NCBI GenBank assembly: GCA_046757025.1
Contig: JBHHXN010000063.1
Span: 1 to 26,191 of the forward strand
DNA: 26,191 nucleotides
From: a bacterium
Lineage (GTDB): Bacteria; Zhuqueibacterota; Zhuqueibacteria; Oceanimicrobiales; Oceanimicrobiaceae
Direction of reading: 5' to 3'
The notes beneath the pieces are model-generated. The model saw nothing but the letters and a program-made list of their open reading frames with translations. It ran no database searches and was not told the DNA's origin. A program made the position numbers and the translations under genes. Numbering within the stretch: the stretch's first letter is position 1; every line of letters starts with the position of its first letter. Positions 8,586-25,484 of the stretch are shown here, piece after piece.

Positions 8586-9146
8586 ATGAAAAAGCTGTTT
8601 TATTTGATCGTCGTAATGAGTGGTTTCGCATTTTTACTGTCAAGCTGTTCCGGCAGCGACAATTCCATGCAATCGATAGCCAGCGATGACGTCATCGCTG
8701 CCAATCTCTGGAATCGGTTGATGTCGGAGGACTACAGCAATACGGCAAAAACGTGGAATCTCTGGCCTGGCAAAACCGGCTATTACGCCGGGGATACCAA
8801 TCTGATGGGCCGCGATCCCCACATGGGACCGCAGGTGTTTCGTACGTTTGTGAATCCCACCGCCCTGAGTAACTTAAACAGTAAATCGTTTCCGCTGGCG
8901 GACAATGCTGTAATCGTTAAAGAAAATTACATGGTGAGCGGTTCCGATACCACTCTGGCAGCTCTGACCGTGATGTTAAAAGTGTCAGGTTACGATTCAG
9001 AACATGGCGATTGGTTCTGGGTGAGTTATCAACCAGACGGAACCGTGAAAACCATGGGTAAGGTTGATATGTGCTACGGTTGTCATGCGGGCGCCAACAA
9101 TCATTATGGCTTTGATCGGGACTATGTCTGGACTGATTTGCCATAA
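8586..9146 (+). CDS. Cytochrome P460 / c'-beta family lipoprotein
   Basis: Lipobox LSSC. Family motifs DNAVIVKENY, LTVMLK..GYDSEHGDWFW, and a C-terminal CYGCH followed by RDYVW. AGGAG SD. Confidence 0.85.
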   Translation: MKKLFYLIVVMSGFAFLLSSCSGSDNSMQSIASDDVIAANLWNRLMSEDYSNTAKTWNLWPGKTGYYAGDTNLMGRDPHMGPQVFRTFVNPTALSNLNSKSFPLADNAVIVKENYMVSGSDTTLAALTVMLKVSGYDSEHGDWFWVSYQPDGTVKTMGKVDMCYGCHAGANNHYGFDRDYVWTDLP

Positions 9147-9190
9147 CGCTTTTCAATAACAGAAAACACCAGATTAAAACTCGCTGGCAT

Positions 9191-9227
9191 AAAAAAAACC
9201 TGCTCGTCAGTACGAGCAGGTTTTTTT
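9191..9227. terminator. Bidirectional intrinsic terminator
   Basis: A8-CCTGCTCGT-cagt-ACGAGCAGG-T7: perfect 9-bp stem between convergent genes. Confidence 0.92.
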
Positions 9228-9243
9228 GAATTTAAAAGAAGAA

Positions 9244-9990
9244 TTATTTCGACTCCGCAAACTCCATATTGACTGTTGCGGTAGCGCCAGCTTTGACCGT
9301 GACTTTCTGGGTCTGAGTTCCTAATTTTTCGTGCCAGAATTCCAGAGTATATGAGCCCGGCGGTACGTCGGCAAGACTGAACTTTCCGTTTTCATCGGTG
9401 ATGGCGTAATAGGGATTATCCACTATTGCCACGTAGCTGTTCATCCAGTTGTGTACGTCACAAGCCACCCGGATAAATTCAGGTTTGTCAAAAGAGATTT
9501 TCAGAACTTTCAAGAATTTCGGCTGCGCTTTGTTAATGGGCGTGTTTTTTTCGCTGAAAGTGTGAATGTTGTGCAGGATGCCATCGCTGTTTTTGATTTG
9601 AATTTTGGCGCCAACCGGAGCCAGCAACACATGCGGCTGGAAGAGACAGCCATTTTGATCCAGCACAAATTCGTCTCCCCAGGTTTCAAAGGATTTGCCA
9701 CCTTTGACGCCTGAAATCCCTACGACCACGTTGGCCAGACCTTTGTCTTTGGCCACGACCAGATCTTCATTGTAATGGTCAACTTTTCCGCAAACGCTCA
9801 CGTCTTTATTCACCGTAATCTTCTTCTTTGCTGGAACAGCACCTGCAAAAGTTACTTTACCTTCGATGGCCGCTCCGGCTGCGGGTGACAGTGCGTGGTT
9901 GGAACCGGTTTTTGCAAAGGCGGTACCCTGGATGTTCGTCAAGCTCATTAACAGACCTGCTGTCACAACAATTGGAAGTATTCGATTCAT
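9244..9990 (-). CDS. Secreted cupredoxin-like protein with carboxypeptidase-regulatory-like beta-sandwich
   Basis: Signal peptide ending AFA; LDQNGCLFQPHV; NSDGILHNIH; ligand loop CDVHNWM (C-x2-H-x2-M); PYYAITDENGKFSLADVPPGSYTLEFWHE. Confidence 0.85.
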   Translation of the reverse strand: MNRILPIVVTAGLLMSLTNIQGTAFAKTGSNHALSPAAGAAIEGKVTFAGAVPAKKKITVNKDVSVCGKVDHYNEDLVVAKDKGLANVVVGISGVKGGKSFETWGDEFVLDQNGCLFQPHVLLAPVGAKIQIKNSDGILHNIHTFSEKNTPINKAQPKFLKVLKISFDKPEFIRVACDVHNWMNSYVAIVDNPYYAITDENGKFSLADVPPGSYTLEFWHEKLGTQTQKVTVKAGATATVNMEFAESK

Positions 9991-10096
9991 AATGCGTTTC
10001 TCCTTTTAATGAATAATGATAGTTGTTAACAAAACCTGTTTCAAAAAGAATGTAAATACACTTTTTATCTCAAAAAGTCAAGTTTTTATTTTGAAA

Positions 10097-10534
10097 TTAC
10101 TGGGCCGTCAGCCGATCTTTTACGATTAAATAACCGACCATCCCTTTTTTCGCATGTCCATCTTTACTGCAATAAAATTTGAACTCGCCGGTTTTCGTAG
10201 GCGTCAGCGTGATGACGACGCCTTCGCCGCCGGGCACGTCTTGATTTTGAATTTCCAGACCGGCTGCCGGCGCCACAAGATTGAAATCGTGCGGCACCAG
10301 TCCCAAAAATCCCGATCGTTTTTTCAACGTCAACTGCAGCGGTCTGTTGACTTCGGTGACGATGCGGCTGGGCTCGAAGTAAAAATTTTTCAAGACCATC
10401 TCCGCTTTCAAGGTATCGTTCGCGAAGAACTTAGCGGTCTCCGTTGTCGGAGCAAGTTGCTTGCCGGGCGTGCCGCAGGCGATAAATACACAAACCCCCA
10501 TGCAAATCAAGGTTACAAATGGTTTGTTAGACAT
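10097..10534 (-). CDS. Single-domain cupredoxin lipoprotein
   Basis: Lipobox FIAC; FYFEPSRI; PHDF; GEFKFYCSKDGHAKKGMVG (C-x4-H-x4-M). Confidence 0.88.
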   Translation of the reverse strand: MSNKPFVTLICMGVCVFIACGTPGKQLAPTTETAKFFANDTLKAEMVLKNFYFEPSRIVTEVNRPLQLTLKKRSGFLGLVPHDFNLVAPAAGLEIQNQDVPGGEGVVITLTPTKTGEFKFYCSKDGHAKKGMVGYLIVKDRLTAQ

Positions 10535-10549
10535 GTTCCTTTTCTCTTT

Positions 10550-11629
10550 TTATAAAAAAACATGAAACTGCAAAGTTAACTGATCTTGATTCAGCGGTAC
10601 GTTTTGAGGGATGAAGCGATTTATTCGGTAAAAGATACCGAATTGCATGAATTGCGTGATAAACGGCTCCACCCCGATGGTGATGCGTTCCTGCCCATCG
10701 CGGTCATTCGCCACATCCCGGTTGCGATCGAAAAACTCGTAGGTGGCTTTGAAATTGAATCCGCGTGTGATCAGGTAGTTTAACTCCACCAAACCGGCGA
10801 ATTGTTCCCGGTCATCTTTTTTAATAAAATCCCCTTCCCCTAACAGCGTGAAGCGCCCAAAGTTGACGCCGGCAAAGGCGCCAGCCACATAGTCATCGCC
10901 CTCGCGGATGTTGCGCCCGAAGGAGCCGCCGATGCGAAACCGTCGGAACACCGTCGAAGCCACCAAAGACAACTGGTTTTCGGTGAGATTGGCCACCAGG
11001 GAATGGGGGCCGGGCTCCAGGCCGATCTCGATGGCGGTGTCATGGCGGTTGTAAGTGTAACCGGTGCGATTGCGAATGAACGCGTCGTTGTCCAGCAGGC
11101 GGTAGCCGAACGGCAGCAGCATGCGCCCGACTTTTAAATACGAATCCAGGGGCAAATTTTGGATGATTCCAAAAAATTCTCGATTGGCGCTGGGTTGCAA
11201 AGTCTGGTCGGCGTACACGGAAAACACATCGGGCACCACGTCAAATTGCAAATAGACATTGGCTTCTGAAATTCGGGTATTGTTGCTGTAATCGGCTTTT
11301 TCGCCGGTAAAGCTTTTGAATTCAAACAGCGACACGTCATCAGCGCGGAAGTTCGCACCCACGGAAATTCGGTCGCTCATCTTGCCATCGAAAAAGCTGG
11401 AGCTGCCTTTGGCTTTGATAAATTTCATGTACAGATTGGTTTGAGAATAGATGACACCGAAGTCGGTTCTTTTGCCGCCGCCGGTCCGATTGACATGACA
11501 TTGACTGCACTTAAATCCTGTCCGTACTGCCAGGTAAGGTTCTGCTGGTAAAGTGGTTAGAAAGCCATCCAGTAGCAGAGCCCACACCAGGCCGGTGGCA
11601 AAAAGCAGGGTGATTTTATTTTTTAACAT
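10550..11629 (-). CDS. Outer-membrane beta-barrel with N-terminal monoheme cytochrome c motif
   Basis: Start moved to ATG 11629 (AGGAGG SD; avoids overlap with the upstream gene). Signal peptide, then AEPYLAVRTGFKCSQCHVNRTGGGKRTDFG. Alternating amphipathic strands and a barrel-type C-terminus (LTLQFHVFL). Confidence 0.78.
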   Translation of the reverse strand: MLKNKITLLFATGLVWALLLDGFLTTLPAEPYLAVRTGFKCSQCHVNRTGGGKRTDFGVIYSQTNLYMKFIKAKGSSSFFDGKMSDRISVGANFRADDVSLFEFKSFTGEKADYSNNTRISEANVYLQFDVVPDVFSVYADQTLQPSANREFFGIIQNLPLDSYLKVGRMLLPFGYRLLDNDAFIRNRTGYTYNRHDTAIEIGLEPGPHSLVANLTENQLSLVASTVFRRFRIGGSFGRNIREGDDYVAGAFAGVNFGRFTLLGEGDFIKKDDREQFAGLVELNYLITRGFNFKATYEFFDRNRDVANDRDGQERITIGVEPFITQFMQFGIFYRINRFIPQNVPLNQDQLTLQFHVFL

Positions 11630-11639
11630 GGATTTCCTC

Positions 11640-12119
11640 CTAATTGTTTGGCGCGCCCTGTGCAATCCAATCTCTGATCAATTGTATTTCACTTTGCGAG
11701 AGAAACGGCGGGCCGTCGAAAGGCATGCGTCGGCCGGCTTTGGGAGAGGCCGATGAAATTTTTTGGATGAGGTAACTGCCATCCGGATCACCGGGAGCCA
11801 CCCGCATCTTCGGGTCGACTGTCGGCGCCTGAAAAGTCGGTTGATTCACAAGGGACGCGTGCGAGTTGCCGCTGGTGAGATTCAGGCCGTTGTTCTGACT
11901 GCCCCCGGTTTGAATAAAACCAATGCCGCCGCTGGCATGACAACGAATGCAATTGGTATCAAAAATGGGTTGAATCTGCGCAGCAAAACCGGAGGCGCCT
12001 TCGGGGTCGCCGCTGGCGTTCAATCTCACCCCATCGCCACGGCAGGAAAACCAGGCCATCAAACTCACCAAAATCAAAATAGACAAAAATAATGACTGTA
12101 TATTCTTTAATACCTGCAT
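11640..12119 (-). CDS. Monoheme cytochrome c lipoprotein (Planctomycete cytochrome C-like domain)
   Basis: Lipobox WFSC; IQPIFDTNCIRCH, GLNL, VAPGDPDGSYLIQKI, RMP (candidate axial Met), LSQSEIQLIRDWIAQGA. Confidence 0.85.
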   Translation of the reverse strand: MQVLKNIQSLFLSILILVSLMAWFSCRGDGVRLNASGDPEGASGFAAQIQPIFDTNCIRCHASGGIGFIQTGGSQNNGLNLTSGNSHASLVNQPTFQAPTVDPKMRVAPGDPDGSYLIQKISSASPKAGRRMPFDGPPFLSQSEIQLIRDWIAQGAPNN

Positions 12120-12134
12120 TTTGTCCTGACTCCT

Positions 12135-13103
12135 TTATTGGGTGACCTCGGTATCTTCTGCAAACAAGCGATAGAAAACACCGGCTTTTTTTGATAAAGA
12201 TTTTACATAGTGCACCAGCGACCAACTGCGACGGTCGATGAGTTCTTTCATCTGCTCTTCGGTCATGTTGCCAATCTGTTCTTCGGTGGGTTGTTTTGTT
12301 AAATAGGCTTTCAGCTCATCCACTTCATTTTTTGAGTAAACTTCGAGATAGTTGTTAAAATCCTCAATACTGTCCCCGCCGAAAAGAAATGTTTCAGAAT
12401 ACGAAGGCATGGGGGTGCCGTTGAGTCCGGTGGTAAAAGTTTTGAAGACGCTGCGGTGGTCATTGCCGCCTTTGTAGTTTCCGATGGTAAAATTGAAAGG
12501 TTTGATTTTATGTCCCCATTCATCTTTCAACGTGTTGGCGGATTTGCCATCTCCTTTACCGCTCACACCATGGCATGCCCAGCATTCCATGAGCATGTAC
12601 AGACTTTTACCTTCGCTAACGGTTTGAGCCGTCATTTGAGGTTCCGAGGAAATCTGGATGGGTTTTCCGGAAGCCATCTTTTGAAATTTATCTGAAAAGG
12701 TTTTTATGTAAGCCACCACGTCCCGGCGAACCTGTTCTGACAGCAAATCTTGCCAGGCCGGCATCATGGTTCGGGGAATGCCGTTGGTAATGGTGCGAAA
12801 CAAGTCATCATCCGTGGGTAACTGTCCGCTGGGAGTTGAACGAAACTTGTAAATTCCTGTGGTGAAATCCCGCGGCAGGGGGTCGAGATAGCGGGCCGCT
12901 GGTCCGTTTCCATCTCCTGCTCGGCCATGACAAGCTGCGCAAGCCCCGTTGTAAACCTGTTGACCGCGCGTGGCCGCCAGCGCTTGTTGAGCTGCGTCCG
13001 GAGTTTCCGTTTCCTGACCGTACAAAACCGCCACAGAAAGCACGGTCAACAGCAGGAATGCCATGAACCAGGCAGCGGGAAGTTTTTTAGTTAGAATGGC
13101 CAT
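12135..13103 (-). CDS. Periplasmic diheme class I cytochrome c
   Basis: Signal/TM segment, then two homologous domains: CAACHG..GDG.GP...PLPRDFT...MMPAW and CWACHG..GKGDG...KPFNFT...PMPSY. AGGAGG SD. Confidence 0.92.
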   Translation of the reverse strand: MAILTKKLPAAWFMAFLLLTVLSVAVLYGQETETPDAAQQALAATRGQQVYNGACAACHGRAGDGNGPAARYLDPLPRDFTTGIYKFRSTPSGQLPTDDDLFRTITNGIPRTMMPAWQDLLSEQVRRDVVAYIKTFSDKFQKMASGKPIQISSEPQMTAQTVSEGKSLYMLMECWACHGVSGKGDGKSANTLKDEWGHKIKPFNFTIGNYKGGNDHRSVFKTFTTGLNGTPMPSYSETFLFGGDSIEDFNNYLEVYSKNEVDELKAYLTKQPTEEQIGNMTEEQMKELIDRRSWSLVHYVKSLSKKAGVFYRLFAEDTEVTQ

Positions 13104-13259: not shown

Positions 13260-13288
13260 ATTATAATCATACTCTGCAACAATGTCAA
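13260..13288 (-). promoter_or_regulatory. Consensus sigma-70 promoter for the diheme cytochrome operon
   Basis: Minus strand reads TTGACA-ttgttgcagagtatgat(17 nt)-TATAAT, a perfect -35/-10 consensus about 157 bp upstream of ATG 13103. Confidence 0.85.
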
Positions 13289-13460: not shown

Positions 13461-16400
13461 CTACAATTTACTCAAATCCGTTCGTACGCGAATTCTTCCT
13501 TTTTGACCGTGATGTAAGGTGCATTCATAGTCGTAGTCCCCTTCGTTCGTAAAAGTTCGAGAAACTTCGGTGCCCGGTTCGGAATCCGGTATATCGCCTC
13601 CTGAAGGCGCTTCCTTTTCAAATGTCACATTGTGCGTCGTACCTGAAAACTGCCAGGTGACTGTGTCACCAGGTTGAATTTCCACTCTTTCCGGACTGAA
13701 CGATTTACCGGGGGTGGTGACGACCACGGTGTTACCCGTGCTTGGCGGCGGGTTCGAACCGCCGCCGCTGCCCACGTTAATGGAGCCTGCCATGCCTTGT
13801 CCACCGCGATCGCCATGAAATATGCAAAAATAGGGAAAGCTCGTGCCATCCTGGGCATCTGCGGGGACTGTCCAACTGTAGGAGCCGCCGGTATTGACCG
13901 TGCCCGAATCCCAGAGACCGGTATCGCTGGTGGAAGTGTGTTTTTTTCTTCCTGAGTTATTCCAGGTGATTTTTGCGCCGGGATTCACAGTGACGTTTCT
14001 GGGAGAAAAAAAGTTATCTTTCATGGCAATGGTGACGTCCCCACCAGTCTGAGGCGGTGGCGGTTCCGAGACCGTGATGGTGGTGGAGGCGTTGGCATTC
14101 AACCCACCGCGCTCCGCCACCACTTTGGCGGTGTGGTCGCCGGCGCTGCTGTAAGAACACAACGCCGCCACCTGGTAGAAATCCTGATCCGTGGTGGTTT
14201 CATGCTCAAATGTGCCGTCGCCGGTGCAGTCAAAACGATAGGTGATGGGGCCGGTTACGGTGCCGCTCACCTGCGCGATGAGCGCGACATTTTCAAGCGG
14301 CGCCTCGCCGGAAGAAGGTTCTGCGCTGAGTGCGACGGACAACGTTGGGGATTGATTTCCAGTGCTTACGTGAATTACGCCGGCCATGCCCTGTCCGCCT
14401 TTATCGCCGTGAAAAACGCAAAAGTAGGGAAAGTCGGTGCCCGACTGCGTGGCCGTGGGCACGGTCCAACTGTAAGAGCCGCCGGTGTTGACGGTGCCCG
14501 AATCCCACAATCCGTCGTCGCTGGTGGAGGTGTGCGGTTTTTTGCCCACATTGTCCCAGATGATCTTCTCGCCGGGTTTCACCGTTACTTCGCGTGGTGA
14601 GAAGAAATTGTCTTTCATGAGTACGCGCACTTCTCTGCCGCTGGAAGGCGGTGGCGGTTCCGAGACCGTGATGGTGGTGGAGGCGTTGGCGTTCAACCCA
14701 CCGCGCTCCGCCACCACTTTGGCGGTGTGGTCGCCGGCGCTGCTGTAAGAACACAACGCCGCCACCTGGTAGAAATCCTGATCCGTGGTGGTTTCATGCT
14801 CAAATGTGCCGTCGCCGGTGCAGTCAAAACGATAGGTGATGGGGCCGGTTACGGTGCCGCTCACCTGCGCGATGAGCGCGACATTTTCAAGCGGCGCCTC
14901 GCCGGAAGAAGGTTCTGCGCTGAGTGCGACGGACAACGTTGGGGATTGATTTCCAGTGCTTACGTGAATTACGCCGGCCATGCCCTGTCCGCCTTTATCG
15001 CCGTGAAAAACGCAAAAGTAGGGAAAGTCGGTGCCCGACTGCGTGGCCGTGGGCACGGTCCAACTGTAAGAGCCGCCGGTGTTGACGGTGCCCGAATCCC
15101 ACAATCCGTCGTCGCTGGTGGCGGTGTGCGGTTTAATGCCCCCGTTTTCCCAGATGATTTTGGCGCCGGGCTTCACTGTCACGTCCCTTGGAGAGAAAAA
15201 ATTATCTCTCATGGAAACGGTGACCACCTCGGCATTCGTAGGGGGCTGTGGCGATGAAACCTCGATGACAATCGAAGTCTCGGCTGTTAACCCTCCTCGT
15301 TCCACCACAACCTTTGCAACATAAGAACCGGGATCGTTGTAATCATATAAATCAACGGCCGTATAAATATTTGAATTGGTTGTCAATTCTTCTTCATAGA
15401 CGCCATCGCTGTTGCAATCAAAGTGATAGGTAATCGCCCCTTCGACGGTGCCGCTGACCTGGGCCGTAAAATCTACGCCTTTCAAAGGCGCCATACCTGC
15501 CGGCGGGCTGGCAGTCAGGGTCACAGATAGAGTCGGCTGCTGCTGAGCGCTGGTACTGACATTGATGACGCCGGTCATACCCTGTCCGCCTTTGTCGCCG
15601 TGGTAAACGCAGAAGTAGGGAATGACGGTACCGGATTGGGTTTCATCGGGTACGGTCCAGCTCCAGGTGGCTCCGCTATCGACCTTTCCGGAGTCCCAGA
15701 TGCCATCATCGCTGGTGGTCGTGTGCGGCATCAAACCGACGTTGCGCCAGCGAACCGTGGCGCCCGGTTTCACGGTCACGTCCCTGGGAGAGAAGAAATT
15801 ATCTATCATGGAGACATTCACCGTATCTGAGGAAGAGGAAGGCGGGGGTTGCGTTCCGACATAGATGACGCCGGCCATGCCCTGTCCGCCTTTGTTGCCA
15901 TGATACACACAGAAATAGGGAAGAGAAGTCCCGTCTGCCGTGGCCTCAGGCACTTGCCAGCTCCAGGACTGACCGCTGTCCACGTTGCCTGAATCCCATA
16001 TTCCGTCATCGCTAGTGGAGGTGTGCGGACGATTACCCACGTTATCCCAGATGATGGTAGCGCCGGCTTTGACCGTCACGTCTTTCGGTGAAAAGAAATT
16101 GTCCTGCATGGCAATAACGACGGTGTCGCCGGTGGAAGAGGGAGGGGGTTCCAGCACGTTAATGGTCGTGGTGGCTTCGGCGGTTAAACCGTCTCGCTCA
16201 ACCGCCACTTTTACCGTGTAAGCTCCCGGAGAATCATAACTGCATAAATCTGCTGATCTATAGGTATCCGAAGCTATGGTGTTTTCATCTTCAAAAGTGC
16301 CGTCACCGTTGCAATCAATTCGATAGGTGATGTCACCGGTGGCGGTGCCGCTTACCTGAACGGTTATGTCCACATCCTGAAGGGGCGCTTCCCCGGCATC

Positions 16401-17132
16401 AGGGTTGACGCTAACCGACACAAAAAGCGTTTTCTGACCAGGAGAGGCACTGCCGACATGCAATATGCCGGCCATGCCCTGTCCGCCTTTATCGCCGTGA
16501 TAAACGCAGTAGTATGGAAAATCGGTTCCGGCGGTGGTTTCATCAGGCACTTTCCAGCTCCAGGACTGGCCGCTGTCCACGTTGCCGGAGTCCCAGAGGC
16601 CGTCGTCGCTGGTGGCGGTGTGCGGCCGGGCGCCGTCGTTTTTCCATATGACGGTGGCTCCCGGTTTTACGGTGGCATCGCGCGGTGAAAAAACATTGTC
16701 CAGCATGGAGATAATGACACTGTCACCGGTGGAAGGCGTTGATTCGGTTGCCGCGGCTACTGTCAGGGTTATGTCAGCGGTGGCCGTGACCTCGGCGCGC
16801 TCAACCATAACTTTAGCGGTATAGGTGCCGGGGTCTGTGTAGCCGCACACGTCCTCGGCGGTGTAGTGGTCACTGTCTTCCGTCACTTCTTTTTCGAAAA
16901 TGCCGTCGTTATTGCAGTCGAAATGAAAGGTCACCGGCCCGCGCGCGGAACCACTCAAACTTGCTGTCAGATCCACGCCCTCTAAAGGGGCTTGACCTGT
17001 TACGGGCACTGCCGTCAGAGTCACTGAAAGCGTTGGTGGAGATAACACCATGGTATCTCGACAGGATAACATTGAAACAAATAGCAGAATCATCAGGGAC
17101 CGTACTGAAAGAAAAATATTTACTGACTTCAT
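13461..17132 (-). CDS. Large lipoprotein with seven plastocyanin/amicyanin-like cupredoxin domains and five PKD-like domains
   Basis: Lipobox MLSC. Six repeats of DN.FSP..xTV..G....W.N.G...HT.TSD.G.WDSG...PYxC(V/I)xHGxxGGQGM.G, plus a seventh divergent domain (THNV...YECTLHHGQ). Five G.APL...DC..DG.(F/Y)E...Y...G.(Y/H)..KV.(V/A)ER PKD-like repeats. Pro/Ser/Thr linkers. Confidence 0.9.
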   Translation of the reverse strand: MKSVNIFLSVRSLMILLFVSMLSCRDTMVLSPPTLSVTLTAVPVTGQAPLEGVDLTASLSGSARGPVTFHFDCNNDGIFEKEVTEDSDHYTAEDVCGYTDPGTYTAKVMVERAEVTATADITLTVAAATESTPSTGDSVIISMLDNVFSPRDATVKPGATVIWKNDGARPHTATSDDGLWDSGNVDSGQSWSWKVPDETTAGTDFPYYCVYHGDKGGQGMAGILHVGSASPGQKTLFVSVSVNPDAGEAPLQDVDITVQVSGTATGDITYRIDCNGDGTFEDENTIASDTYRSADLCSYDSPGAYTVKVAVERDGLTAEATTTINVLEPPPSSTGDTVVIAMQDNFFSPKDVTVKAGATIIWDNVGNRPHTSTSDDGIWDSGNVDSGQSWSWQVPEATADGTSLPYFCVYHGNKGGQGMAGVIYVGTQPPPSSSSDTVNVSMIDNFFSPRDVTVKPGATVRWRNVGLMPHTTTSDDGIWDSGKVDSGATWSWTVPDETQSGTVIPYFCVYHGDKGGQGMTGVINVSTSAQQQPTLSVTLTASPPAGMAPLKGVDFTAQVSGTVEGAITYHFDCNSDGVYEEELTTNSNIYTAVDLYDYNDPGSYVAKVVVERGGLTAETSIVIEVSSPQPPTNAEVVTVSMRDNFFSPRDVTVKPGAKIIWENGGIKPHTATSDDGLWDSGTVNTGGSYSWTVPTATQSGTDFPYFCVFHGDKGGQGMAGVIHVSTGNQSPTLSVALSAEPSSGEAPLENVALIAQVSGTVTGPITYRFDCTGDGTFEHETTTDQDFYQVAALCSYSSAGDHTAKVVAERGGLNANASTTITVSEPPPPSSGREVRVLMKDNFFSPREVTVKPGEKIIWDNVGKKPHTSTSDDGLWDSGTVNTGGSYSWTVPTATQSGTDFPYFCVFHGDKGGQGMAGVIHVSTGNQSPTLSVALSAEPSSGEAPLENVALIAQVSGTVTGPITYRFDCTGDGTFEHETTTDQDFYQVAALCSYSSAGDHTAKVVAERGGLNANASTTITVSEPPPPQTGGDVTIAMKDNFFSPRNVTVNPGAKITWNNSGRKKHTSTSDTGLWDSGTVNTGGSYSWTVPADAQDGTSFPYFCIFHGDRGGQGMAGSINVGSGGGSNPPPSTGNTVVVTTPGKSFSPERVEIQPGDTVTWQFSGTTHNVTFEKEAPSGGDIPDSEPGTEVSRTFTNEGDYDYECTLHHGQKGRIRVRTDLSKL
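14052..15134. repeat. Near-identical intragenic direct repeat (14052-14540 vs 14646-15134)
   Basis: 489-bp copies offset by 594 bp (198 codons). I found only two mismatches (14097/14691 and 14528/15122). Confidence 0.92.
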
Positions 17133-17647: not shown

Positions 17648-17654
17648 TAATGCA

Positions 17655-17686
17655 GAAGCAGAAGGAGGCATGGCTCCTCCTGCTTC
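17655..17686 (-). terminator. Hairpin downstream of the tandem cupredoxin gene (possible terminator or stability element)
   Basis: Minus strand GAAGCAGGAGGAG-ccatgc-CTCCTTCTGCTTC: 13-bp stem with one G-U pair, followed by only a weak U tract. Confidence 0.5.
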
Positions 17687-17737
17687 CGATTGACTGTCCA
17701 ATGGTGGAAATTGAGAAAATTCAACTTCCTCCGCAGC

Positions 17738-18700
17738 TCATTGCACAACGATGTGACCGTGCATGCCTGCTTCCTGGTGTCCGGCAATGGTGCAGATTAC
17801 TTCAAATTCGCCCGTTTTAGTGGGCACCAAAAACAATTCCGTGTTGCCGCCAATCAACAATTCTATGGCATTAAAATACGGGACTTTGATTTCAGCATAA
17901 GAGTCTTCGGCTTTTCTGGTGACAACGGATTTATAAAAATCAGTACAGGTGTAATAGTGCTTGCTTTCATTGGAGCCGTCGTTGACCAGATTGATTTTGT
18001 AACCGGTGTCTTTCGTCAAAGTCAACGTTTCGGGATCAAACGCCAGTGAGCCGTCGGCGTTTTCAATCATCTGTACTGTTACTTCCTGAGCAGTTGACCA
18101 GACCGGATTGGAACCCGAGGTTCTGGCGTCCGTGGTCAATCCCATGTCAAAATTGGTATCTACTTCCAGATCAAGTTCATAACCTTCGCCACCTGTAACC
18201 GTAATTTTGCCGGTCATGCCGGCTTCTTTGTGGCCGGTGATGGTGCACAGAAAATCGTACGTACCAGCTAATACGGGAATGAAATAAAGCTCCACCTCGC
18301 CGCCGATCAACAGCTCCACTGCTTTAAAATAGGGTGCCTTGTATTCGGCGTCCGGTGTTTGCACCTTACGCGTGGCAATGGCTTGAAGAAAGTCCTTGGC
18401 GCCTTCAGTGGCAAAATAGTGCTTGCTTGAATTTCCCGCTGGATTCGTAAACTTCAGCACGTAAGGTTTGCCGGCTTCCAGTGTGATTTCCGAAGGTTCA
18501 AAATGAAAATCATTTGCGGATTCTTCGTGCATGGTGACCACGATGGTGGTCTTCGCATCCCAGTTGGCGTTGGCGACCCAATCAGACGCTTTCACCCAGG
18601 GGGATTCTTCCGGGCCGGTTGAGGAATCGCCCTTACAGCCGAGAAACAGCCCGATGAGCAGCAGGGCTGCGACGACACTGAATAATTTGATTAGTTTCAT
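17738..18700 (-). CDS. Tandem two-domain cupredoxin lipoprotein
   Basis: Start at ATG 18700 (GGAGG SD); lipobox FLGC. Two repeats of F.P...TL......SKHY...(V/I)ELLIGG..EL...P...G with loops CTITGHKEAGM and CTIAGHQEAGM (C-x4-H-x4-M). Confidence 0.9.
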   Translation of the reverse strand: MKLIKLFSVVAALLLIGLFLGCKGDSSTGPEESPWVKASDWVANANWDAKTTIVVTMHEESANDFHFEPSEITLEAGKPYVLKFTNPAGNSSKHYFATEGAKDFLQAIATRKVQTPDAEYKAPYFKAVELLIGGEVELYFIPVLAGTYDFLCTITGHKEAGMTGKITVTGGEGYELDLEVDTNFDMGLTTDARTSGSNPVWSTAQEVTVQMIENADGSLAFDPETLTLTKDTGYKINLVNDGSNESKHYYTCTDFYKSVVTRKAEDSYAEIKVPYFNAIELLIGGNTELFLVPTKTGEFEVICTIAGHQEAGMHGHIVVQ

Positions 18701-18880
18701 TATACAATCCTCCACGATTGATTAATTTGTTAAATAAGTTTGTTAAATGTTATGAAATAGACCGGAGTCGTCAAGTACCAAATCCTGCGGCTCCTCTTCT
18801 GAAAAAAAATCGACTGCTACGGTCACCTCCCCTCGTTTCCTTTTTTATCTTTGTGAATTCATTCAGTTTGATATGTGATT

Positions 18881-19261
18881 TCAATTAAAACAGCTTATTT
18901 CCATATCTCGCAGGCGGCAGGTGATCTGCGTGAAATTCAGGATAAATCTGATCTTGGTTTCATGGTCCGATTTGAGCTTGTCAATAATTTCAACCACGGC
19001 TCTTGCGATGGTAGGTTCCCCTGAAATCTCCTGGTCCAGCTCCGATGCAAATTCCTTGATTTTTTCTATTCTAATATGCGGTTTATCATTTTTGCTCTGC
19101 TCTACGAAAAAGCGGATTTGTTCCGCTAATTTACCGTTTTCAATCCAAAAGGTAGGAGACATTTTTGCTGAAAAAAAAGAGCCGTGGCTTCCATTATTGT
19201 GAAACATAACATCGAACAGGTAATTAATAAAACAGGTTAACTGGCAACGTACAATGCCCAC
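18881..19261 (-). CDS. Possible small hypothetical protein (start uncertain)
   Basis: 126-codon ORF between a sigma-54 promoter and the tandem cupredoxin gene, in the same orientation. No SD and no recognisable motif. Confidence 0.3.
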   Translation of the reverse strand: MGIVRCQLTCFINYLFDVMFHNNGSHGSFFSAKMSPTFWIENGKLAEQIRFFVEQSKNDKPHIRIEKIKEFASELDQEISGEPTIARAVVEIIDKLKSDHETKIRFILNFTQITCRLRDMEISCFN

Positions 19262-19307: not shown

Positions 19308-19322
19308 GCAAATGAAGTGCCA
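19308..19322 (-). promoter_or_regulatory. Sigma-54 (-24/-12) promoter facing the cupredoxin genes
   Basis: Minus strand TGGCAC-TTCAT-TTGC, with exact GG-N10-GC spacing. Confidence 0.85.
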
Positions 19323-19630: not shown

Positions 19631-21001
19631 TCAGGCAGGATATTTTATGTTGTACAATTCCAGTTTTTTATACAAGCGCGTTCTCGAAATGCCTAATAAA
19701 GCCGCGGCTTTGGATTTGTTGCCTTTTGCCGCGATCAAAGCTTGTTCAACGGCGTTTCGTTCTGTGCGGCTCAGCGTGCTGACGGTATCCCCGCTGACCA
19801 CGAGCTGTGCCGAAGGTTTCACTTCTCGCTTCAAAATGGCGCGCACATCTTCGAGCCGGATTATTTTTTCGATCCCCATCACGTAAAGCCCTTCTATGAA
19901 GTTCTCCAGCTCGCGGACGTTTCCCGGCCAGGCATACTCCATCAAAATGTTGACCGCCGGCCTTTCGATACCTTGAATTTTCCGATGAAAAACCCGATTG
20001 AATTTTTCGATAAAATGCCGCACTAAAAACGGAATATCGGTCTGGCGTTCTCTCAGTGGTGGAATCGTAATGACCACCACACTGATTCGGTAAAACAAGT
20101 CCTGGCGCAGCTGCCCTTGCTCCAGGGCCTGCTCAATCTGCCTGTTGGTGGCAGACACTACCCGCACATCGATGGGGATTTCTCGCGTGTCGCCCACGGG
20201 ACGGATGACCATTTCCTGCAAAACCCGCAATAGAATGACCTGCACCTCTTTTGGCATTTCAGCGATTTCATCCAAAAAGATGGTGCCTTTGTGGGCGGAA
20301 CGAAACAAGCCCGGAGTGCTTTTATCCGCCCCGGTGAAAGCCCCTTTTTTGTGACCGAACAGCTCACTTTCAATGAGCTCTTTTGGAAGGGCACCGCAAT
20401 TGACCGGCACGAACGGTGCCGCCGACCGCCTGGAATTTTGGTGAATGGCCCGGGCAATCAGCTCTTTGCCGGTCCCGCTTTCGCCGATTATCAAAACCGA
20501 GCTGTCGCTGCGCGCGGCGTGCAAACCTTGAGTGAAAATATCCAACATCTGCTTGCTCTTGCCAATGATATTGTCAAAGCCGTACTTCTCTTTTAACTGT
20601 GTGCGCAACTGTGCTACTTCGCCCCTCAACTGCCGGCTTTCGATTATCTTTTTGATCACGTGCAATAGCTCGTCTTTATTAAACGGTTTGGTGATATAAT
20701 CGGAAGCGCCGATTTTGATGGCTTGCACGGCATTCTGGATAGTGCCGTAACCGGTCATGACGATGACATCGGTTTCAGGGCTTTGCTGTTTAATGCGTTT
20801 CAGCAGTTCGATGCCGTCCATGACCGGCATTTTTAAATCAGTTAACACGATGCTAACCGGTCCATTGCGCGACAGGATGTCCAGAGCCTCCTGCGCGGAA
20901 TACGCCACCAATGCGTCGAATTTATTGCGTTTGAATAGTTTAAAACAGTTATCCGCCATGTCACGGTCGTCTTCGACGATCAATATCTTGAAATCATTCA
21001 T
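19631..21001 (-). CDS. Sigma-54-dependent NtrC/AtoC-family response regulator
   Basis: REC (ILIVEDD, LTDLKMPVMDG), GESGTGKE, PVNCGA, intact GAFTGA, IFLDEI, WPGNVRELEN, HTH NKSKAAALLGISRTRLYKKL. ATGA overlap with the kinase gene. Confidence 0.96.
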   Translation of the reverse strand: MNDFKILIVEDDRDMADNCFKLFKRNKFDALVAYSAQEALDILSRNGPVSIVLTDLKMPVMDGIELLKRIKQQSPETDVIVMTGYGTIQNAVQAIKIGASDYITKPFNKDELLHVIKKIIESRQLRGEVAQLRTQLKEKYGFDNIIGKSKQMLDIFTQGLHAARSDSSVLIIGESGTGKELIARAIHQNSRRSAAPFVPVNCGALPKELIESELFGHKKGAFTGADKSTPGLFRSAHKGTIFLDEIAEMPKEVQVILLRVLQEMVIRPVGDTREIPIDVRVVSATNRQIEQALEQGQLRQDLFYRISVVVITIPPLRERQTDIPFLVRHFIEKFNRVFHRKIQGIERPAVNILMEYAWPGNVRELENFIEGLYVMGIEKIIRLEDVRAILKREVKPSAQLVVSGDTVSTLSRTERNAVEQALIAAKGNKSKAAALLGISRTRLYKKLELYNIKYPA

Positions 21002-23316
21002 GCGGTTTTCCTGGAATTGTAAAAGGGCAGCGTGATGGTAAATGTGGTACCTTTGCCCGATTCACTTTCTACTTCGATGCGGCCTTTATGCTCTTTCACG
21101 ATGCCGTAACAAACAGACAACCCGAGTCCCGTGCCCTTACCAACGTCTTTATTGGTGTAAAACGGATCAAAAATTTTGTTCAGGTTTTCTTTGGGAATAC
21201 CCATGCCGGTATCGCTGACCTTCACTTGGACTTTATTTAAATTTCGACTCGTGCTGATTTTAATTTCGCCGCCATCTGTCATGGCATCTTGGGCGTTGTT
21301 CAGCAAATTAAAAAACAACTGTTCAATTTGGTTGGCGTTGCCATAAATGGCACTGCCGCGCTCATCGAATTCTGTGGAAACCGTGATGTGGCTATTCTTG
21401 AATTTTTTATGCATCAGGTCGATGATGAGGCGAATGATATCCTCTAATTTGACCGCCGATTTACTGGTGTCCGCCGGTCTGGAAAAACTCAATAATTCCT
21501 TAATAATTTTTTCACAATGATCCGCCTGACGTTCAATCCGGTCCAGATCATCGAGAATTTCTTTGTCGTCCACCACTTCTTTGGTCATTTGCGCCGACAA
21601 AATGATGGAAGCCAGCGGCGTGTTCAATTGGTGCGCGATGCCGGCAGCAAGTTGTCCGATTCCGGCCAATTTTTCAGCCTGTTGAATTTGCTTTCCCATC
21701 TTTATTTGTTCGGTCATATCCTTGCCAATGGTCAAGATACCGGTCACTTCCTCGTTTTCGTTTTTTATGGGGGAAGCAGAAATGTTGATCGGCAGGGTCT
21801 GCCCGTTTTTTTTCACAAAGTCGATTTGATAACTGTGCAGCTTTTTGTCCGTGTCTGCGACTTCTATCAACGGGCAGCGCTTTTCAACACAGCTCTTGCA
21901 TAAGGTGCAAATTTGTTTGCCGATAACCTCACTGACCTGGTAACCGAATATTTTTTGTGCACCCCGGCTGAACAGGGTGATATTTCTTTCCGTATCCAGG
22001 GTAATGATGGCATCCACCGAGCTGTCGATCAGTTTTTGCAGATAGTTTAGCGTTTTGCTCAATTCACGCGTTCTCTCAGCCACTTTTTGCTCTAAAATTT
22101 CAGCATATTCTTTAAGTTGCTCCTGGTGATGTTTGATGACGTCGGCCATGTGATTAAAGTCCACGGCAAGCTGTTCGATTTCGTCGTTCGTGTCGAGATG
22201 AATCCGATAGTCCAGATGGCCTTTGGCCAGCATTTCAGAGCTTTTGCTTAAATCTTTTATGGGGCGCGTAAATTGATTGGCTGCTACAAAACCCAGCACC
22301 AGGGCAATGGCAAAAGAGGCCGATCCGAACAACAGCACCAGTTTCATGAACGACCGGCTGGGCTGGTGAATCAGATCTTTGGAGATACATCGTAAAAGAA
22401 CTAAAAAATTGTCTTTCGAGCCGGTAAAATAGATGGGCGTGTAGGCCACGATTTTGTTCGTCTGCTCTTCGATCAGGCCCGGTTTGCCGGAAAGAATTTG
22501 CTCGTGGGCTGCCGCGGGAAAGTCCCGTTCGATGTTGCCTTCCTTTCGCAGAGCCAGTAGTTTATTCCACTCCGTTTTGTCGGAATTGTAAATGTAAAAT
22601 CCTTCGCTGTCGGCCAGAATGGTTCGGCGGCCTGCCGACACTGGCGCTTCGGCCAGGATGTCAAATAAGGTTTGCGCATACACATTGGCGATGAGAATGC
22701 CTTGCAGCTCCTCACGGTTTTTGAGGCTGTAAACCGGCAAAAAGTAGCTGATGGCCGGAATGATGCGGTCAACAAACTTTTCATTCGTCAGCTCCACCGG
22801 CGTGAACTGCAGCTCGCTATTCTGGTTGTTTTCTACGCTGTAAAGATAAAATACGTCCTGTCGTCGGGTTAGCTCATCTTGGGGTGTCACCACGGTGATG
22901 ATGCCGTCGTGTTCAATTTTCAGCATTTCGTTGGTAAACTGATCCAGAAAACGCAGCTGATAATAGACTTTTCGGTTGCTGGCGAAATCACGAAACTGCT
23001 CTTCCACCACATGCTGCCATTTTTTAATTTCATCCTTGTCTTCATTTTCCAATGCGTTGATCATCTCCCGAAAAACATAGGAATCTCTCAAATAGTAGAT
23101 ATCGCTTTTGATTTCGTTTAGAAATCTATCAACCTTGATTTGCATGTTTGAAATATCGCTCTGCAAATCCTGCAAAGAGATATCTTCCAAAATCCGGATG
23201 GTGTATTTCACTCCCCAGAAGCCGGTTAAAAGCAGTGGTACGGTTGCCAGTAGCGTAAACGCGATGGTCAGCTTGTTGCGAATTTTGAACTGTTTTAATA
23301 ATTTATTCAGGTTCAT
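20998..23316 (-). CDS. Sensor histidine kinase (TM, Cache-like periplasmic domain, TM, HAMP, PAS, HisKA, HATPase)
   Basis: Two TM helices around a ~290-aa periplasmic region; HAMP (DEIEQLAVDFNHM); PAS (SSVDAIITLD...GAQKIFGY...KKNGQTLPINISASP); H-box IAHQLNTPL; DTGMGI, FDPFYTNK, GTGLGLSV. Confidence 0.94.
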   Translation of the reverse strand: MNLNKLLKQFKIRNKLTIAFTLLATVPLLLTGFWGVKYTIRILEDISLQDLQSDISNMQIKVDRFLNEIKSDIYYLRDSYVFREMINALENEDKDEIKKWQHVVEEQFRDFASNRKVYYQLRFLDQFTNEMLKIEHDGIITVVTPQDELTRRQDVFYLYSVENNQNSELQFTPVELTNEKFVDRIIPAISYFLPVYSLKNREELQGILIANVYAQTLFDILAEAPVSAGRRTILADSEGFYIYNSDKTEWNKLLALRKEGNIERDFPAAAHEQILSGKPGLIEEQTNKIVAYTPIYFTGSKDNFLVLLRCISKDLIHQPSRSFMKLVLLFGSASFAIALVLGFVAANQFTRPIKDLSKSSEMLAKGHLDYRIHLDTNDEIEQLAVDFNHMADVIKHHQEQLKEYAEILEQKVAERTRELSKTLNYLQKLIDSSVDAIITLDTERNITLFSRGAQKIFGYQVSEVIGKQICTLCKSCVEKRCPLIEVADTDKKLHSYQIDFVKKNGQTLPINISASPIKNENEEVTGILTIGKDMTEQIKMGKQIQQAEKLAGIGQLAAGIAHQLNTPLASIILSAQMTKEVVDDKEILDDLDRIERQADHCEKIIKELLSFSRPADTSKSAVKLEDIIRLIIDLMHKKFKNSHITVSTEFDERGSAIYGNANQIEQLFFNLLNNAQDAMTDGGEIKISTSRNLNKVQVKVSDTGMGIPKENLNKIFDPFYTNKDVGKGTGLGLSVCYGIVKEHKGRIEVESESGKGTTFTITLPFYNSRKTA

Positions 23317-23335
23317 TCGGGCTCAACAAGTTGCT

Positions 23336-23965
23336 TTATTTTAAGAGTTTCGAGAGATTAGCCGGATCGCCCAGGAACAAATTGAAATTGGCGGTGACGC
23401 TGCCCTTTTCAGGCACAAAAAGTTCCACGGTACTGGTAGCCAGATTTTTGTGCCAGGTGCTCAACCGATAAGTTCCCTCCGGCACATTTGATATGACATA
23501 TTTACCATCGGCGTCGGTCAGGGCAAAATAAGGGTTTTTCAGCACGATGATGTAAGCGGACATTTCCGGATGAACGTTGCACAAGAGCACCACTTTGCCG
23601 GGCTTGTTGTATTTAACGGATTTAAAATCTCCGGGCGGATAAGAGCCCAGATTGAAACGGTTGACCCCGGATGGCGAAAAAACATTGTGCTGCACTTTGT
23701 CGCTATTCAAAAAATCCACCGTGGTGCCCACAACTATGGGCAAAATGTGCGGAATGAAAGTCAGATTCTTTTGATCCATTTTCGGGCGCACTTTCGGTGG
23801 TGGAAATTTATCTGGAGACGCCACGTCTTCGATGAATACAACAATATTTTTCGTACTGTCAACCCAATCGGATTGCACTTTTCCTTTGATTTCACCGCCT
23901 ATGGCAGGGAATATGCCGGCGCTGAAAATTATCAAACTGAATGTGATGGTATAAAAGATTTTCAT
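23336..23965 (-). CDS. Secreted cupredoxin-like protein with carboxypeptidase-regulatory-like domain (homologue of 9244-9990)
   Basis: Signal peptide from ATG 23965 (or GTG 23971); MDQKNLTFIPHILP, FLNSDKVQHNVFS, FNLGSY, loop CNVHPEM, PYFALTDADGKYVISNVPEGTYRLSTWH. The ORF is open from 24073, but that extension precedes the signal peptide. Confidence 0.87.
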   Translation of the reverse strand: MKIFYTITFSLIIFSAGIFPAIGGEIKGKVQSDWVDSTKNIVVFIEDVASPDKFPPPKVRPKMDQKNLTFIPHILPIVVGTTVDFLNSDKVQHNVFSPSGVNRFNLGSYPPGDFKSVKYNKPGKVVLLCNVHPEMSAYIIVLKNPYFALTDADGKYVISNVPEGTYRLSTWHKNLATSTVELFVPEKGSVTANFNLFLGDPANLSKLLK

Positions 23966-24146
23966 TTTCACTTTTCTTGCCCTCTCATTGTTGACACCAG
24001 TCCTGTTTGGATGAACCGAACGATGGCAAAAAGAGTTTACTATCCTTTCAGAATAATTAAACACCGATATCACATCTGCCGGCTAAGGCTCTGCCAACCA
24101 TTTATTATTTATTAAAAGAAGCATGATAATGCGACAATCGAGCATT

Positions 24147-24162
24147 TGCAACTTATATGCCA
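24147..24162 (-). promoter_or_regulatory. Sigma-54 promoter upstream of the cupredoxin-kinase-regulator operon
   Basis: Minus strand TGGCAT-ATAAG-TTGCA, with exact GG-N10-GC spacing, in the intergenic gap. Confidence 0.8.
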
Positions 24163-24212
24163 TGAAAAAGAAAACTGCGTTTTTGTTGCCCCTTTTTAAT
24201 AATGCCTGGCCA

Positions 24213-25484
24213 TCAAAACAAAAAATCCAATCGTATTCTAAAAAGACTGTCACCGCTGTTATCGAGATAAATTTCGCCTTCGTTCACCAGACGGACATTG
24301 GCGCGATACGCCAGAACCAGACCCGGCACGATGCGTTGGATTTCACGCCCATCCTGGTCCACTCGATCATACCGAATCAGAGCTATTATCCAGGGCAGCA
24401 GGAGATATTCCGCTTCCACAAAAAAAGCGTTGAAGCTGGATTCAGCCAGGTTGTTTTTAAATTCACGGCCGTGCATAAATACGCCGAACAAATTCAAACG
24501 TTGGTACCACCAATCCAGGTCGAAACCGAAGCGGTCAAAGGTATTGGATTTTTCGGAGAAGGTGCCTTCGCCAAAATATCCAAAAGCTCCGATTTTGAAG
24601 GAATCATCCTGCCAATTGCTGGTTTGCTGCAATTGCCGTGATTTTGGCAGACGGGTGGAACCGGCCACACCGAATCCGCCAAATTTATACGAAAGGCGAT
24701 AGTAGGTATCTTTGGATGAATTCGTGTCACGGCGAGGACCGCTGCCGTTGACCACCCCGAGACCGTACTCCAGTCCGCCGGTATCCGTAATGGATTTTGC
24801 GCCCCAAAGCTCAATGCCTTGCTGCCGTTGTTTAAAATTAAACCCACCGGACACCGCTCGAAACTCGGAAGTGATAAAATCAGCAGCGGTCAGGCGCCGA
24901 CTGAAGCGCGAAAAGGGCACGGAAGCCAATTCAAATCGTCCAATTTTGAGGTTGAACAAGGTGTTGCCGCCGATTCGATCAAACTGTGCAAACGCGCGTT
25001 CGAGCACAAATTCTTCATTTTCAAATGCCAGCTCAAAAAAATAAGAGAAACCGCTGCCGGCATTACCCCCTGCTAAAATTTCAATTTCCCTTGGAATGTC
25101 AAAATCACTGGTGATTTCGGCGCCCGGATTTATGAGGAAATCCCCATCCATCCTCAAAGCAATGGGGGGAAAGCCCGGCAAACGAGCGGGCCAGAAGCCT
25201 TTGGGCCAGACTTCTTTCCACTCCTCATCCCCCAATTTGACGTCGGGTATTTTTACAAACGCTTCATCTTTCGGTGGAATTCTGTAACCGTTATTTTTAA
25301 ACGCTTTGCCGAATTTATTCAATTTCGGAATCAAAACATGACAGGTGGTACAGGCGGTTTTGTAACGTCGGGCAAACGCCGGAATGGCGAAACTTTCCTT
25401 TGCAGCGCCGACCATCGAAACAAAAAAGAGGATCCAAAACCACCACCAGTGGCCACAAATCATGCGCTTGTTTTTATTCATCAT
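24213..25484 (-). CDS. Cyc2-like fused monoheme cytochrome c-porin
   Basis: Signal peptide ending SFA. Mature N-terminus IPAFARRYKTACTTCHVLIPKLNKFGKAFKNNGY fits the Cyc2-family pattern AxPxFAR...CxxCH...PxLxxFGxxFKxxG(Y/F). The remainder is amphipathic beta strands ending in RIRLDFLF with a terminal Phe. Confidence 0.82.
   Translation of the reverse strand: MMNKNKRMICGHWWWFWILFFVSMVGAAKESFAIPAFARRYKTACTTCHVLIPKLNKFGKAFKNNGYRIPPKDEAFVKIPDVKLGDEEWKEVWPKGFWPARLPGFPPIALRMDGDFLINPGAEITSDFDIPREIEILAGGNAGSGFSYFFELAFENEEFVLERAFAQFDRIGGNTLFNLKIGRFELASVPFSRFSRRLTAADFITSEFRAVSGGFNFKQRQQGIELWGAKSITDTGGLEYGLGVVNGSGPRRDTNSSKDTYYRLSYKFGGFGVAGSTRLPKSRQLQQTSNWQDDSFKIGAFGYFGEGTFSEKSNTFDRFGFDLDWWYQRLNLFGVFMHGREFKNNLAESSFNAFFVEAEYLLLPWIIALIRYDRVDQDGREIQRIVPGLVLAYRANVRLVNEGEIYLDNSGDSLFRIRLDFLF

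Follow-up and report, generated by a model that had tools for sequence, protein, structure and literature searches.

A conserved locus of cytochrome-porins and blue-copper lipoproteins in an uncultured member of the Zhuqueibacterota: a candidate sigma-54-controlled route for electron uptake

The chain of Acidithiobacillus ferrooxidans is outlined as Cyc2-Cyc1-rusticyanin-Cup-aa3 (PMC13741234), and its first component, Cyc2, is defined by an N-terminal heme joined to a 16-strand porin, the motif AXPXFAR[Q/K][T/Y], a PXL motif, and a length of at least 365 aa (Keffer et al. 2021, PMC8406198). Elsewhere, large cupredoxin-domain proteins have been proposed for extracellular electron uptake, namely Slit_1812-1818 in Sideroxydans and UetF in Tenderia (PMC11429942; bioRxiv 10.1101/2022.05.06.490989), and bd-like (TO_1-type) oxidase clusters, whose oxidase function is putative, are described in passages on Nitrospina, Nitrospira, and Manganitrophus (PMC3578206, PMC9040806). 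Metagenome-assembled genomes (MAGs) of KSB1 have been reported with iron-oxidase genes (PMC10732223). Here we analyze positions 8586 to 25484 of a 26,191-nucleotide contig (JBHHXN010000063.1; hereafter the window) of a member of the Oceanimicrobiaceae (Zhuqueibacterota), which encodes two predicted heme-porins, further c-type cytochromes, and a series of type-1 copper proteins. With a probability of roughly 0.5, we read this cluster as a sigma-54-controlled electron-uptake chain to O2, the likely donor being Fe(II).

The window is the whole of contig C63 of assembly GCA_046757025.1 (G000; 5.96 Mb, 94.8% complete), and the stretch is contained in four DNA runs of one study, labeled hydrothermal vent metagenome, two of which are possible sources of it; no RNA run is listed among those containing it. 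Comparisons covered 61 relatives, 167 genomes of the phylum, and 21 of the family; G001, G004, and G013 are the other carrier genomes, and L- and C-numbers denote loci and contigs. The ten genes singled out by a first-pass annotation are all located where it placed them, and its counts hold. Type-1 copper ligand sets (an upstream His plus a Cys-x-His-x-Met loop) number 12, with seven in the gene at 13461-17132, two in that at 17738-18715, and one each in genes 10097, 9244, and 23336, and the six CXXCH motifs fall in genes 8586, 10550, 11640, and 24213 (one each) and 12135 (two). Pfam cupredoxin matches back genes 13461, 17738, and 10097; the match is weak in 23336 (E = 0.0076) and missing in 9244, so the copper sites of these two genes rest on the motif. 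The five lipoboxes correspond to lipobox-like Cys residues, four found by pattern (8586, 10097, 11640, 17738) and one by eye (13461; MLSC, Cys24). What found no support was the idea of a single ten-gene system. The stretch is several units: the P460-family gene stands apart, the diheme gene is preceded by its own sigma-70 promoter, and the conserved core of porin, lipoprotein cytochrome, and diheme cytochrome mostly occurs without multi-copper proteins.

The unit holding this core consists of the diheme cytochrome, the monoheme lipoprotein, a heme-porin that we call the sister porin, and two cupredoxins, with a sigma-70 site ahead:

13260..13288, minus strand: sigma-70 consensus promoter before the diheme gene (12/12 sequence match)
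12135..13103, minus strand: secreted diheme cytochrome c (two CXXCH)
11640..12119, minus strand: lipoprotein monoheme cytochrome c with a FoxE-like domain (alignment; Met invariant in the family)
10550..11629, minus strand: second heme-porin, sister family of Cyc2, 359 aa (16-strand model, fold match, hhalign)
10097..10534, minus strand: single cupredoxin lipoprotein, one type-1 set (Pfam, motif)
9244..9990, minus strand: secreted cupredoxin/carboxypeptidase-regulatory-like protein, one type-1 set (motif), last gene of the unit

By the published definition the sister porin is not a Cyc2, as it has neither the upstream motif nor PXL (each in 0/76 aligned relatives) and its 359 aa fall below 365. 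Its AlphaFold2 model (pLDDT 91.8) nevertheless has 16 barrel strands and small N-terminal helices, as predicted for a heme-binding N terminus fused to a 16-strand porin, with OprP as the top Foldseek match, and hhalign relates its family to that of the Cyc2-like protein (93.4%, E = 2.4e-7). This family returned 640 matches and is seen in KSB1, Fibrobacterota, Calditrichota, Marinimicrobia, Gemmatimonadota, and Gammaproteobacteria; the nearest titled relatives (65 to 71% identity) are named "candidate division KSB1" or are unclassified MAGs, which places G000 probably in KSB1. An Atlas search gave clusters without names, the nearest named one being Porin_O_P, on 12% of members.

We surveyed 37 sister-porin loci, some sharing a genome and many on short contigs. 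A monoheme lipoprotein gene lies directly upstream of the porin in 34 of them, across several phyla, and a diheme gene lies within 2.6 kb in 25; in most loci, the porin is linked to cytochromes and not to regulators. The best PDB match of the monoheme family profile is FoxE (5MAB, E = 5e-9, to both FoxE heme domains), followed by hydrazine synthase alpha (E = 6e-6), and because this domain type is common to the latter, the FoxE likeness is not specific to Fe(II) oxidation. The partner cytochromes of L062, L064, L075, L087, and L078 have CX3CH or CX4CH motifs that a CXXCH scan would miss. When the diheme protein was assessed as a Cyc1/c4-type cytochrome, every NCBIfam match was below cut-off. 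Of the cupredoxins that follow the porin, the 9244 type comes directly after it in G004 and on G013:C123, and the single cupredoxin 10097 was not seen at the equivalent place in the relatives' loci.

At the other end of the stretch, the first unit joins a Cyc2-like porin to regulators:

24213..25484, minus strand: Cyc2-like fused monoheme cytochrome-porin, 423 aa (CXXCH, Cyc2-like upstream motif, PXL, 16-strand model)
24148..24162, minus strand: sigma-54 -24/-12-like box between the Cyc2-like gene and the next gene (intergenic pattern)
23336..24073, minus strand: secreted cupredoxin/carboxypeptidase-regulatory-like protein, one type-1 set (motif); true start probably near 23965
20998..23316, minus strand: sensor kinase with periplasmic sensor domain, HAMP, and PAS (Pfam)
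19631..21001, minus strand: NtrC-type sigma-54 activator (Pfam), kept in G001, G004, and G013

Judged from its motifs and its model, gene 24213 appears to be a near-canonical Cyc2-like gene. At 423 aa it exceeds the minimum of 365 aa, and it has PXL after CXXCH, as do 82/85 aligned relatives. It carries R at the Q/K position of the upstream motif, which the aligned relatives match in 13/85 cases with strict letters and in 80/85 with relaxed letters. The AlphaFold2 model (pLDDT 84.0, heme region poorly modeled) shows 16 barrel strands and small N-terminal helices, so that the single N-terminal CXXCH is predicted to be fused to a 16-strand porin, and Foldseek returned general porins. The two heme-bearing beta-barrels of the first-pass annotation are therefore both borne out at the level of models. 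Searches of the Pfam and NCBIfam models with this protein gave no Cyc2 match, a PDB sequence search gave no match, and a plasmid search gave a single match of 54 residues.

Near 16 full-length Cyc2-like genes (15 loci that are mutual kin and not independent, with two misses at contig ends), we found a cupredoxin in 15/16, a kinase within 4.5 kb in 14/16, and a sigma-54 activator in 13/16 cases. The box at 24162 recurs in the same place in G013 (L022:7194); G001 and G004, whose gap is too short for it, do not have it. Sensor kinases bearing CXXCH directly follow the Cyc2-like gene at L025:4543-8949 and L062:2852-5662. Elsewhere in the class, distant Cyc2-like genes of other families (L015-L020) adjoin 4- to 5-heme cytochromes and not cupredoxins, and G009, which lacks the copper proteins, has a truncated 120-aa piece of a close Cyc2-like ortholog (L013:1492-1854, 71% identity).

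Between these two lies the copper unit, a sigma-54 box followed by the di- and hepta-cupredoxin lipoproteins:

19308..19322, minus strand: conserved sigma-54 -24/-12 box upstream of the copper-protein unit (intergenic pattern)
18881..19261, minus strand: open reading frame (ORF) of no known family, 126 aa; relatives have a small receiver-like ORF at that place
17738..18715, minus strand: di-cupredoxin lipoprotein with auracyanin-like domains, two type-1 sets (Pfam, motif)
17653..17688, minus strand: strong hairpin after the di-cupredoxin gene (sequence)
13461..17132, minus strand: lipoprotein with seven cupredoxin domains and five PKD-like spacers, 1223 aa (Pfam, motif, lipobox by eye)
14052..15121: recent internal duplication giving domains 4-5 (14052-14527 equals 14646-15121 with one mismatch)

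Each domain of the 1223-aa protein keeps an electron-transfer type-1 ligand set, with Gln replacing the axial Met in the seventh, and six of the domains are 59 to 88% alike. Because domains 4-5 coincide with a DNA repeat and contig depth is raised there (~2x on a 357-nt repeat piece and ~3x on a 145-nt piece), seven domains are probably a minimum. An assembly artefact was considered for the repeats and rejected: a paralog in G000 has five domains and the G004 form six, which indicates that the repeat architecture is real. The nearest solved relatives of the di-cupredoxin protein are auracyanins, and paralogous loci carry fused di-cupredoxin forms with four sites. His and Met contents of the copper proteins are ordinary. 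GC content is 0.56 to 0.59 across the multi-copper gene (14001-17000) versus ~0.37 to 0.52 elsewhere in the window, and a palindromic interspersed repeat between the two copper genes (17481-17635) has 79 matches on 61 contigs and very high run depth.

Full-length close homologs of the multi-copper protein made up 3/25 matches, and a metagenome scan confirmed 0/120 pattern matches. Among the top 150 representatives, 65 have at least four type-1-like loops (up to 12, by a loose pattern) and 54 have none, having matched via PKD-like parts. Very long PKD/cupredoxin repeat proteins with 6 to 12 type-1-like loops include P0271, P0279, P0300, P0248, and others, and we found no account of them in the literature. 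Some related repeat strings named from Bacteroidota have a secretion tail, and others end in hydrophobic anchors (by eye); a cell-surface role is accordingly favored for the string class.

The sigma-54 control proposed earlier is consistent with the predicted box at 19322, which has a counterpart in the corresponding position of 6 loci from 4 genomes and matches the strict pattern in 4 of the 6; that pattern occurs 19 times in the 5.96-Mb genome. For sigma-70, 26 weaker sites were found versus 20.6 expected, so only the 12/12 site stands out, and the gap from the copper protein to the diheme gene is only 36 to 90 bp in G001 and G013. FNR-like boxes showed no conservation across the loci compared.

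The genes co-occur beyond this genome. The multi-copper lipoprotein is present in 4/61 relatives and 4/167 phylum genomes (G000, G001, G004, and G013), the di-cupredoxin is in the same 4/61 genomes, full-length Cyc2-like orthologs (68 to 72%) are in the same four carriers, and the sister porin is in these plus G007 and G042; within the family, the four components coincide in the same 4/21 genomes. In an RpoB tree built from 20 family genomes (the 21st, G020, was omitted because its sequence is in fragments), the carriers are unrelated and need four changes, indicating that transfer or loss affected the set as a whole. Nearly the whole gene order is on one contig in G004 (C71) and in pieces in G001 and G013, so the proposed check on neighborhood conservation came out in favor of a linked set, with order kept in unrelated genera. 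G000 holds a second copy on C141 (5+4 Cu sites), where a Cys-rich ORF of 152 aa and a probable barrel protein of 351 aa with CxxC and no Pfam match (L034:9598-11104; similar in G001, G004, and G013) possibly serve copper supply. On C103 (L035:1293-18370), a Cyc2-like paralog is accompanied by kinase, activator, cupredoxin, flavoprotein, Rieske, cytochrome b, and octaheme c genes. A similar order is found in G001, G003, G010, G014, and G021, and the locus is a candidate uphill branch.

We propose that the heme of the predicted porins would accept electrons from an external donor, most likely Fe(II) in solution, and that these would travel via the lipoprotein and diheme cytochromes and the blue-copper proteins to oxygen reductases whose genes lie outside the locus. 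The sister porin and the lipoprotein cytochrome would form the conduit, the Cyc2-like porin, cupredoxin, kinase, and activator may be a cassette with a second task, sensing the donor or the redox state of the envelope and turning on the copper unit, and the 5- to 7-site lipoproteins may be high-potential carriers or charge stores on one outer-membrane face. Electron flow would be inward, since Met-ligated type-1 Cu and His/Met hemes are suited to electron delivery to O2.

The first-pass annotation saw no terminal oxidase in the window, and none is there. Terminal-oxidase clusters beside orthologous or paralogous copies of the locus supply a candidate electron sink. A bd-like oxidase cluster lies within 10 kb of the sister porin in 5/37 loci and a heme-copper oxidase in 1/37. 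The gene right after a paralogous sister-porin copy in G001 and G013 is the bd-like one, with cytochromes next and, in G001, a cupredoxin. All four carriers have two to four heme-copper oxidases over cut-off; G000 has two, both outside the window. Contig C141 ends within the sister porin, and the first genes of C334 are those that in G001 come after the bd-like cluster. A contig with 86% likeness to the bd-like gene of G013 is close in depth to a C141-like contig (15.8 versus 14.8; the runs mix several related populations). This is only a hint that a bd-like gene lies in the C141-C334 gap of G000.

Several lines of evidence support electron uptake from Fe(II). The porins are built like Cyc2, the partner cytochrome is upstream in 34/37 loci with its FoxE likeness, and bd-like clusters are near; the four components share the same family genomes, and all carriers have heme-copper oxidases; searches for multicopper oxidase and NirK found none in G000 or G004 (PF07732 had no match in G000, controls being positive); and the hydrothermal vent label of the runs fits. 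Other observations weigh against it. There is no oxidase among the window ORFs, 31/37 sister-porin loci have neither oxidase nearby (many contigs are short), and no bd-like gene was found in the G000 assembly or G004. Each multi-copper protein stands beside the sister porin in only 2/37 loci and is therefore accessory, multi-loop strings (the 65 of the top 150) are common with no such porins shown, and the PKD spacers may separate the Cu sites too far for a fixed wire. The sister-porin core is present in Fibrobacterota and other groups not known as iron oxidizers, Cyc2-like matches occur in 49/61 relatives, and the functions of divergent Cyc2 are called uncertain in the text of Keffer 2021 (PMC8406198).

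RuBisCO and acetyl-CoA synthase were found in none of the four carriers (controls positive), so the chain would provide extra energy for a heterotroph rather than support autotrophy. With regard to a reverse TCA cycle, PF16114 matches are present in 4/4 carriers and weak (E ~1e-6), and the ORF behind the one in G000 we take to resemble a succinyl-CoA ligase. CXXCH occurs in 131 ORFs of G000, with as many as 31 motifs in one protein, and at least 33 of these ORFs have four or more. The suggestion that blue-copper chains stand in place of multiheme cytochromes is thus contradicted; copper here adds to multiheme cytochromes. Contig C12 has a 50-kb multiheme-rich region, and C19 (~17400-26250) has a secreted molybdoenzyme cluster with a related diheme cytochrome. 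The labels Nar/NXR for C19 and ACIII and Nap for other G000 contigs are our reading of gene patterns, not results of family tests.

The Fe(II) uptake chain has to be weighed against other explanations. It seems doubtful, yet deserves attention, that the locus is instead a periplasmic respiratory hub or sensor without net uptake from outside, in which the porin hemes would detect or oxidize a small solute, e.g., a nitrogen oxide, and the copper and heme carriers would store electrons or move them among periplasmic enzymes, bc complexes, and oxidases. The regulators and cupredoxin beside most Cyc2-like genes, the heme motif of two neighboring kinases, the Cyc2-like paralog adjoining a Rieske/cytochrome b complex, and the presumed Nar/NXR-like cluster with its related diheme in G000 would all fit, whereas the sister porin is tied to cytochromes rather than regulators and periplasmic shuttling needs no heme-porin fusion. 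The bd-like cluster with cytochromes and cupredoxin-like proteins likewise resembles one tied to nitrite oxidoreductase in the account of Nitrospina (PMC3578206); on the other side, no NirK was found in G000 or G004, and a NosZ search was blank, as were its controls.

We consider it fairly improbable that the cupredoxins serve for buffering or sequestration of copper in a habitat rich in metals, controlled by a sigma-54 two-component system that senses copper, with the porin-cytochrome genes as co-located clients or neighbors. There is a precedent in that the Myxococcus sigma-54 system CorSR is described as controlling an operon for copper tolerance that encodes a cupredoxin and a cytochrome (PMC3707914), and repeat expansion multiplies Cu sites; the CxxC-bearing barrel and Cys-rich protein of the paralogous loci would also suit such a role. 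The CopI model matches, however, are weak (22 to 61 bits versus a cut-off of 200 to 280), and the ordinary His and Met contents differ from the His/Met-rich regions reported for CopI (PMC13308877). No P-type ATPase, Cus, or multicopper oxidase is found among the 18 window ORFs, and every domain keeps the electron-transfer ligand set.

Less probable still is that the same conduit serves an organic donor, with secreted sugar dehydrogenases feeding electrons via surface cupredoxins and porins to respiration. In G001, a secreted protein of at least 1740 aa (L108:2-5221, on C183) joins a glucose/sorbosone dehydrogenase domain, PKD and CBM96 modules, and an intact di-cupredoxin (66% identity). Its embedding in a protein of the sugar-dehydrogenase family fits an electron-carrier role for the di-cupredoxin, and KSB1 are described as heterotrophs in passages of PMC10732223 and PMC9012183. 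Such a protein is nonetheless found in only 1/4 carriers, and no such dehydrogenase is in the window or the syntenic loci. A chance mosaic of unrelated envelope genes, for which one could cite the several promoters, hairpin, and genome-wide repeat that divide the window and the poor conservation of the P460 gene and single cupredoxin, is very improbable, being largely refuted already by synteny in unrelated genera (gene order is preserved along a single G004 contig and piecewise in G001 and G013), the second copy in the same genome, and the conserved sigma-54 box.

A more speculative role, which we think unlikely, concerns the 5- to 7-site lipoproteins: they may be surface copper chains that gather electrons from minerals or secreted dehydrogenases and feed the single-heme porin, a copper counterpart of outer-surface multiheme cytochromes. 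If so, the multi-cupredoxin strings of other bacteria (up to 12 loops) would be an unrecognized class of extracellular electron transfer. Copper strings need not accompany these porins, however, since the architecture is widespread.

Three further features of the window stand outside the cluster:

8586..9146, plus strand: P460-family cytochrome lipoprotein (PF16694), neighbor outside the system

This gene was rejected as a member, being on the opposite strand and not found in G001, G004, or G013 (0/3 other carriers; 5/61 genomes have it). Its Lys112, at a position we take to be the cross-link position of cytochrome P460, aligns with Lys in 6HIU/9HRK and with Met or Phe in 7S5O/7EAD (weak matches, E = 0.002 to 0.4). 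It follows a second kinase/sigma-54 activator pair (5328-9146, plus strand, for the three genes), possibly a separate nitrogen-oxide unit. At 319-4522 (minus strand), an ECF sigma factor, FecR, and a TonB-dependent receptor with an STN domain form an ordinary cell-surface signaling trio.

The locus connects multi-site blue-copper proteins, an uncharacterized class, with cytochrome-porins and oxidases and thereby offers the class a function that can be tested; all parts are small enough for expression and assay. If uptake from Fe(II) is true, uncultured heterotrophs would add to iron oxidation at oxic-anoxic boundaries. Surveys using the published Cyc2 filters would miss the sister porin because it fails their motif and length criteria. 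Our literature search, which covered main texts and not supplements (the PMC10732223 table and PMC8406198 alignments may list the genes), found no description of the locus, the sister porin, or tandem type-1 lipoproteins.

Set against known systems, the likenesses are partial. The copper-tolerance systems CopI and CorSR/curA share envelope cupredoxins and sigma-54 two-component control with the locus, which has no His/Met-rich regions, ATPase, or multicopper oxidase; CopI/CorSR identity was rejected on these features and on CopI scores far under cut-off, as was a multicopper oxidase or Cu nitrite reductase identity, the T2/T3 Cu-oxidase domain PF07732 having no match in G000. The Sideroxydans and Tenderia proteins, compared by description only, have multicopper oxidase motifs or sit with multiheme complexes. 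In relatives of the locus, the sister porin is immediately followed by a bd-like subunit, mono-/diheme c, a diheme/EB_dh protein, and a cupredoxin-like gene, as in TO_1-type clusters; the passages describing the latter place no heme-porin or multi-copper lipoprotein there (PMC3578206, PMC9040806), and the cluster lies outside this window. With FoxE (PDB 5MAB/5MVO) a domain is shared, here in a monoheme lipoprotein beside a heme-porin.

The comparison with Cyc2 and its chain is the closest. One N-terminal CXXCH and a predicted 16-strand porin are common to both porin genes and Cyc2, with OprP/OprO among the fold matches (PMC8406198). Gene 24213 resembles it further in PXL, adequate length, and a near-match upstream motif, and differs in its R at the Q/K position and its tie to a kinase/sigma-54 pair; gene 10550 is unlike it in having neither motif, in its shorter length, and in its fixed lipoprotein cytochrome partner. 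The rus-like inventory suggested earlier stands for its part classes (one Cyc2-like porin, diheme c, cupredoxins, and heme-copper oxidases in the genome), but rusticyanin identity was rejected by cut-off (TIGR03095, 41.3 bits versus 146.7) and no rus-type aa3 oxidase genes are in the window. In contrast to the soluble single-site carriers of A. ferrooxidans, and exceeding known iron-oxidation chains in copper, the locus has 12 Cu sites, on lipoproteins, together with two porins and an oxidase encoded outside the window, in a probable heterotroph. The cluster would work like the Cyc2/rusticyanin chain but is not a rus operon.

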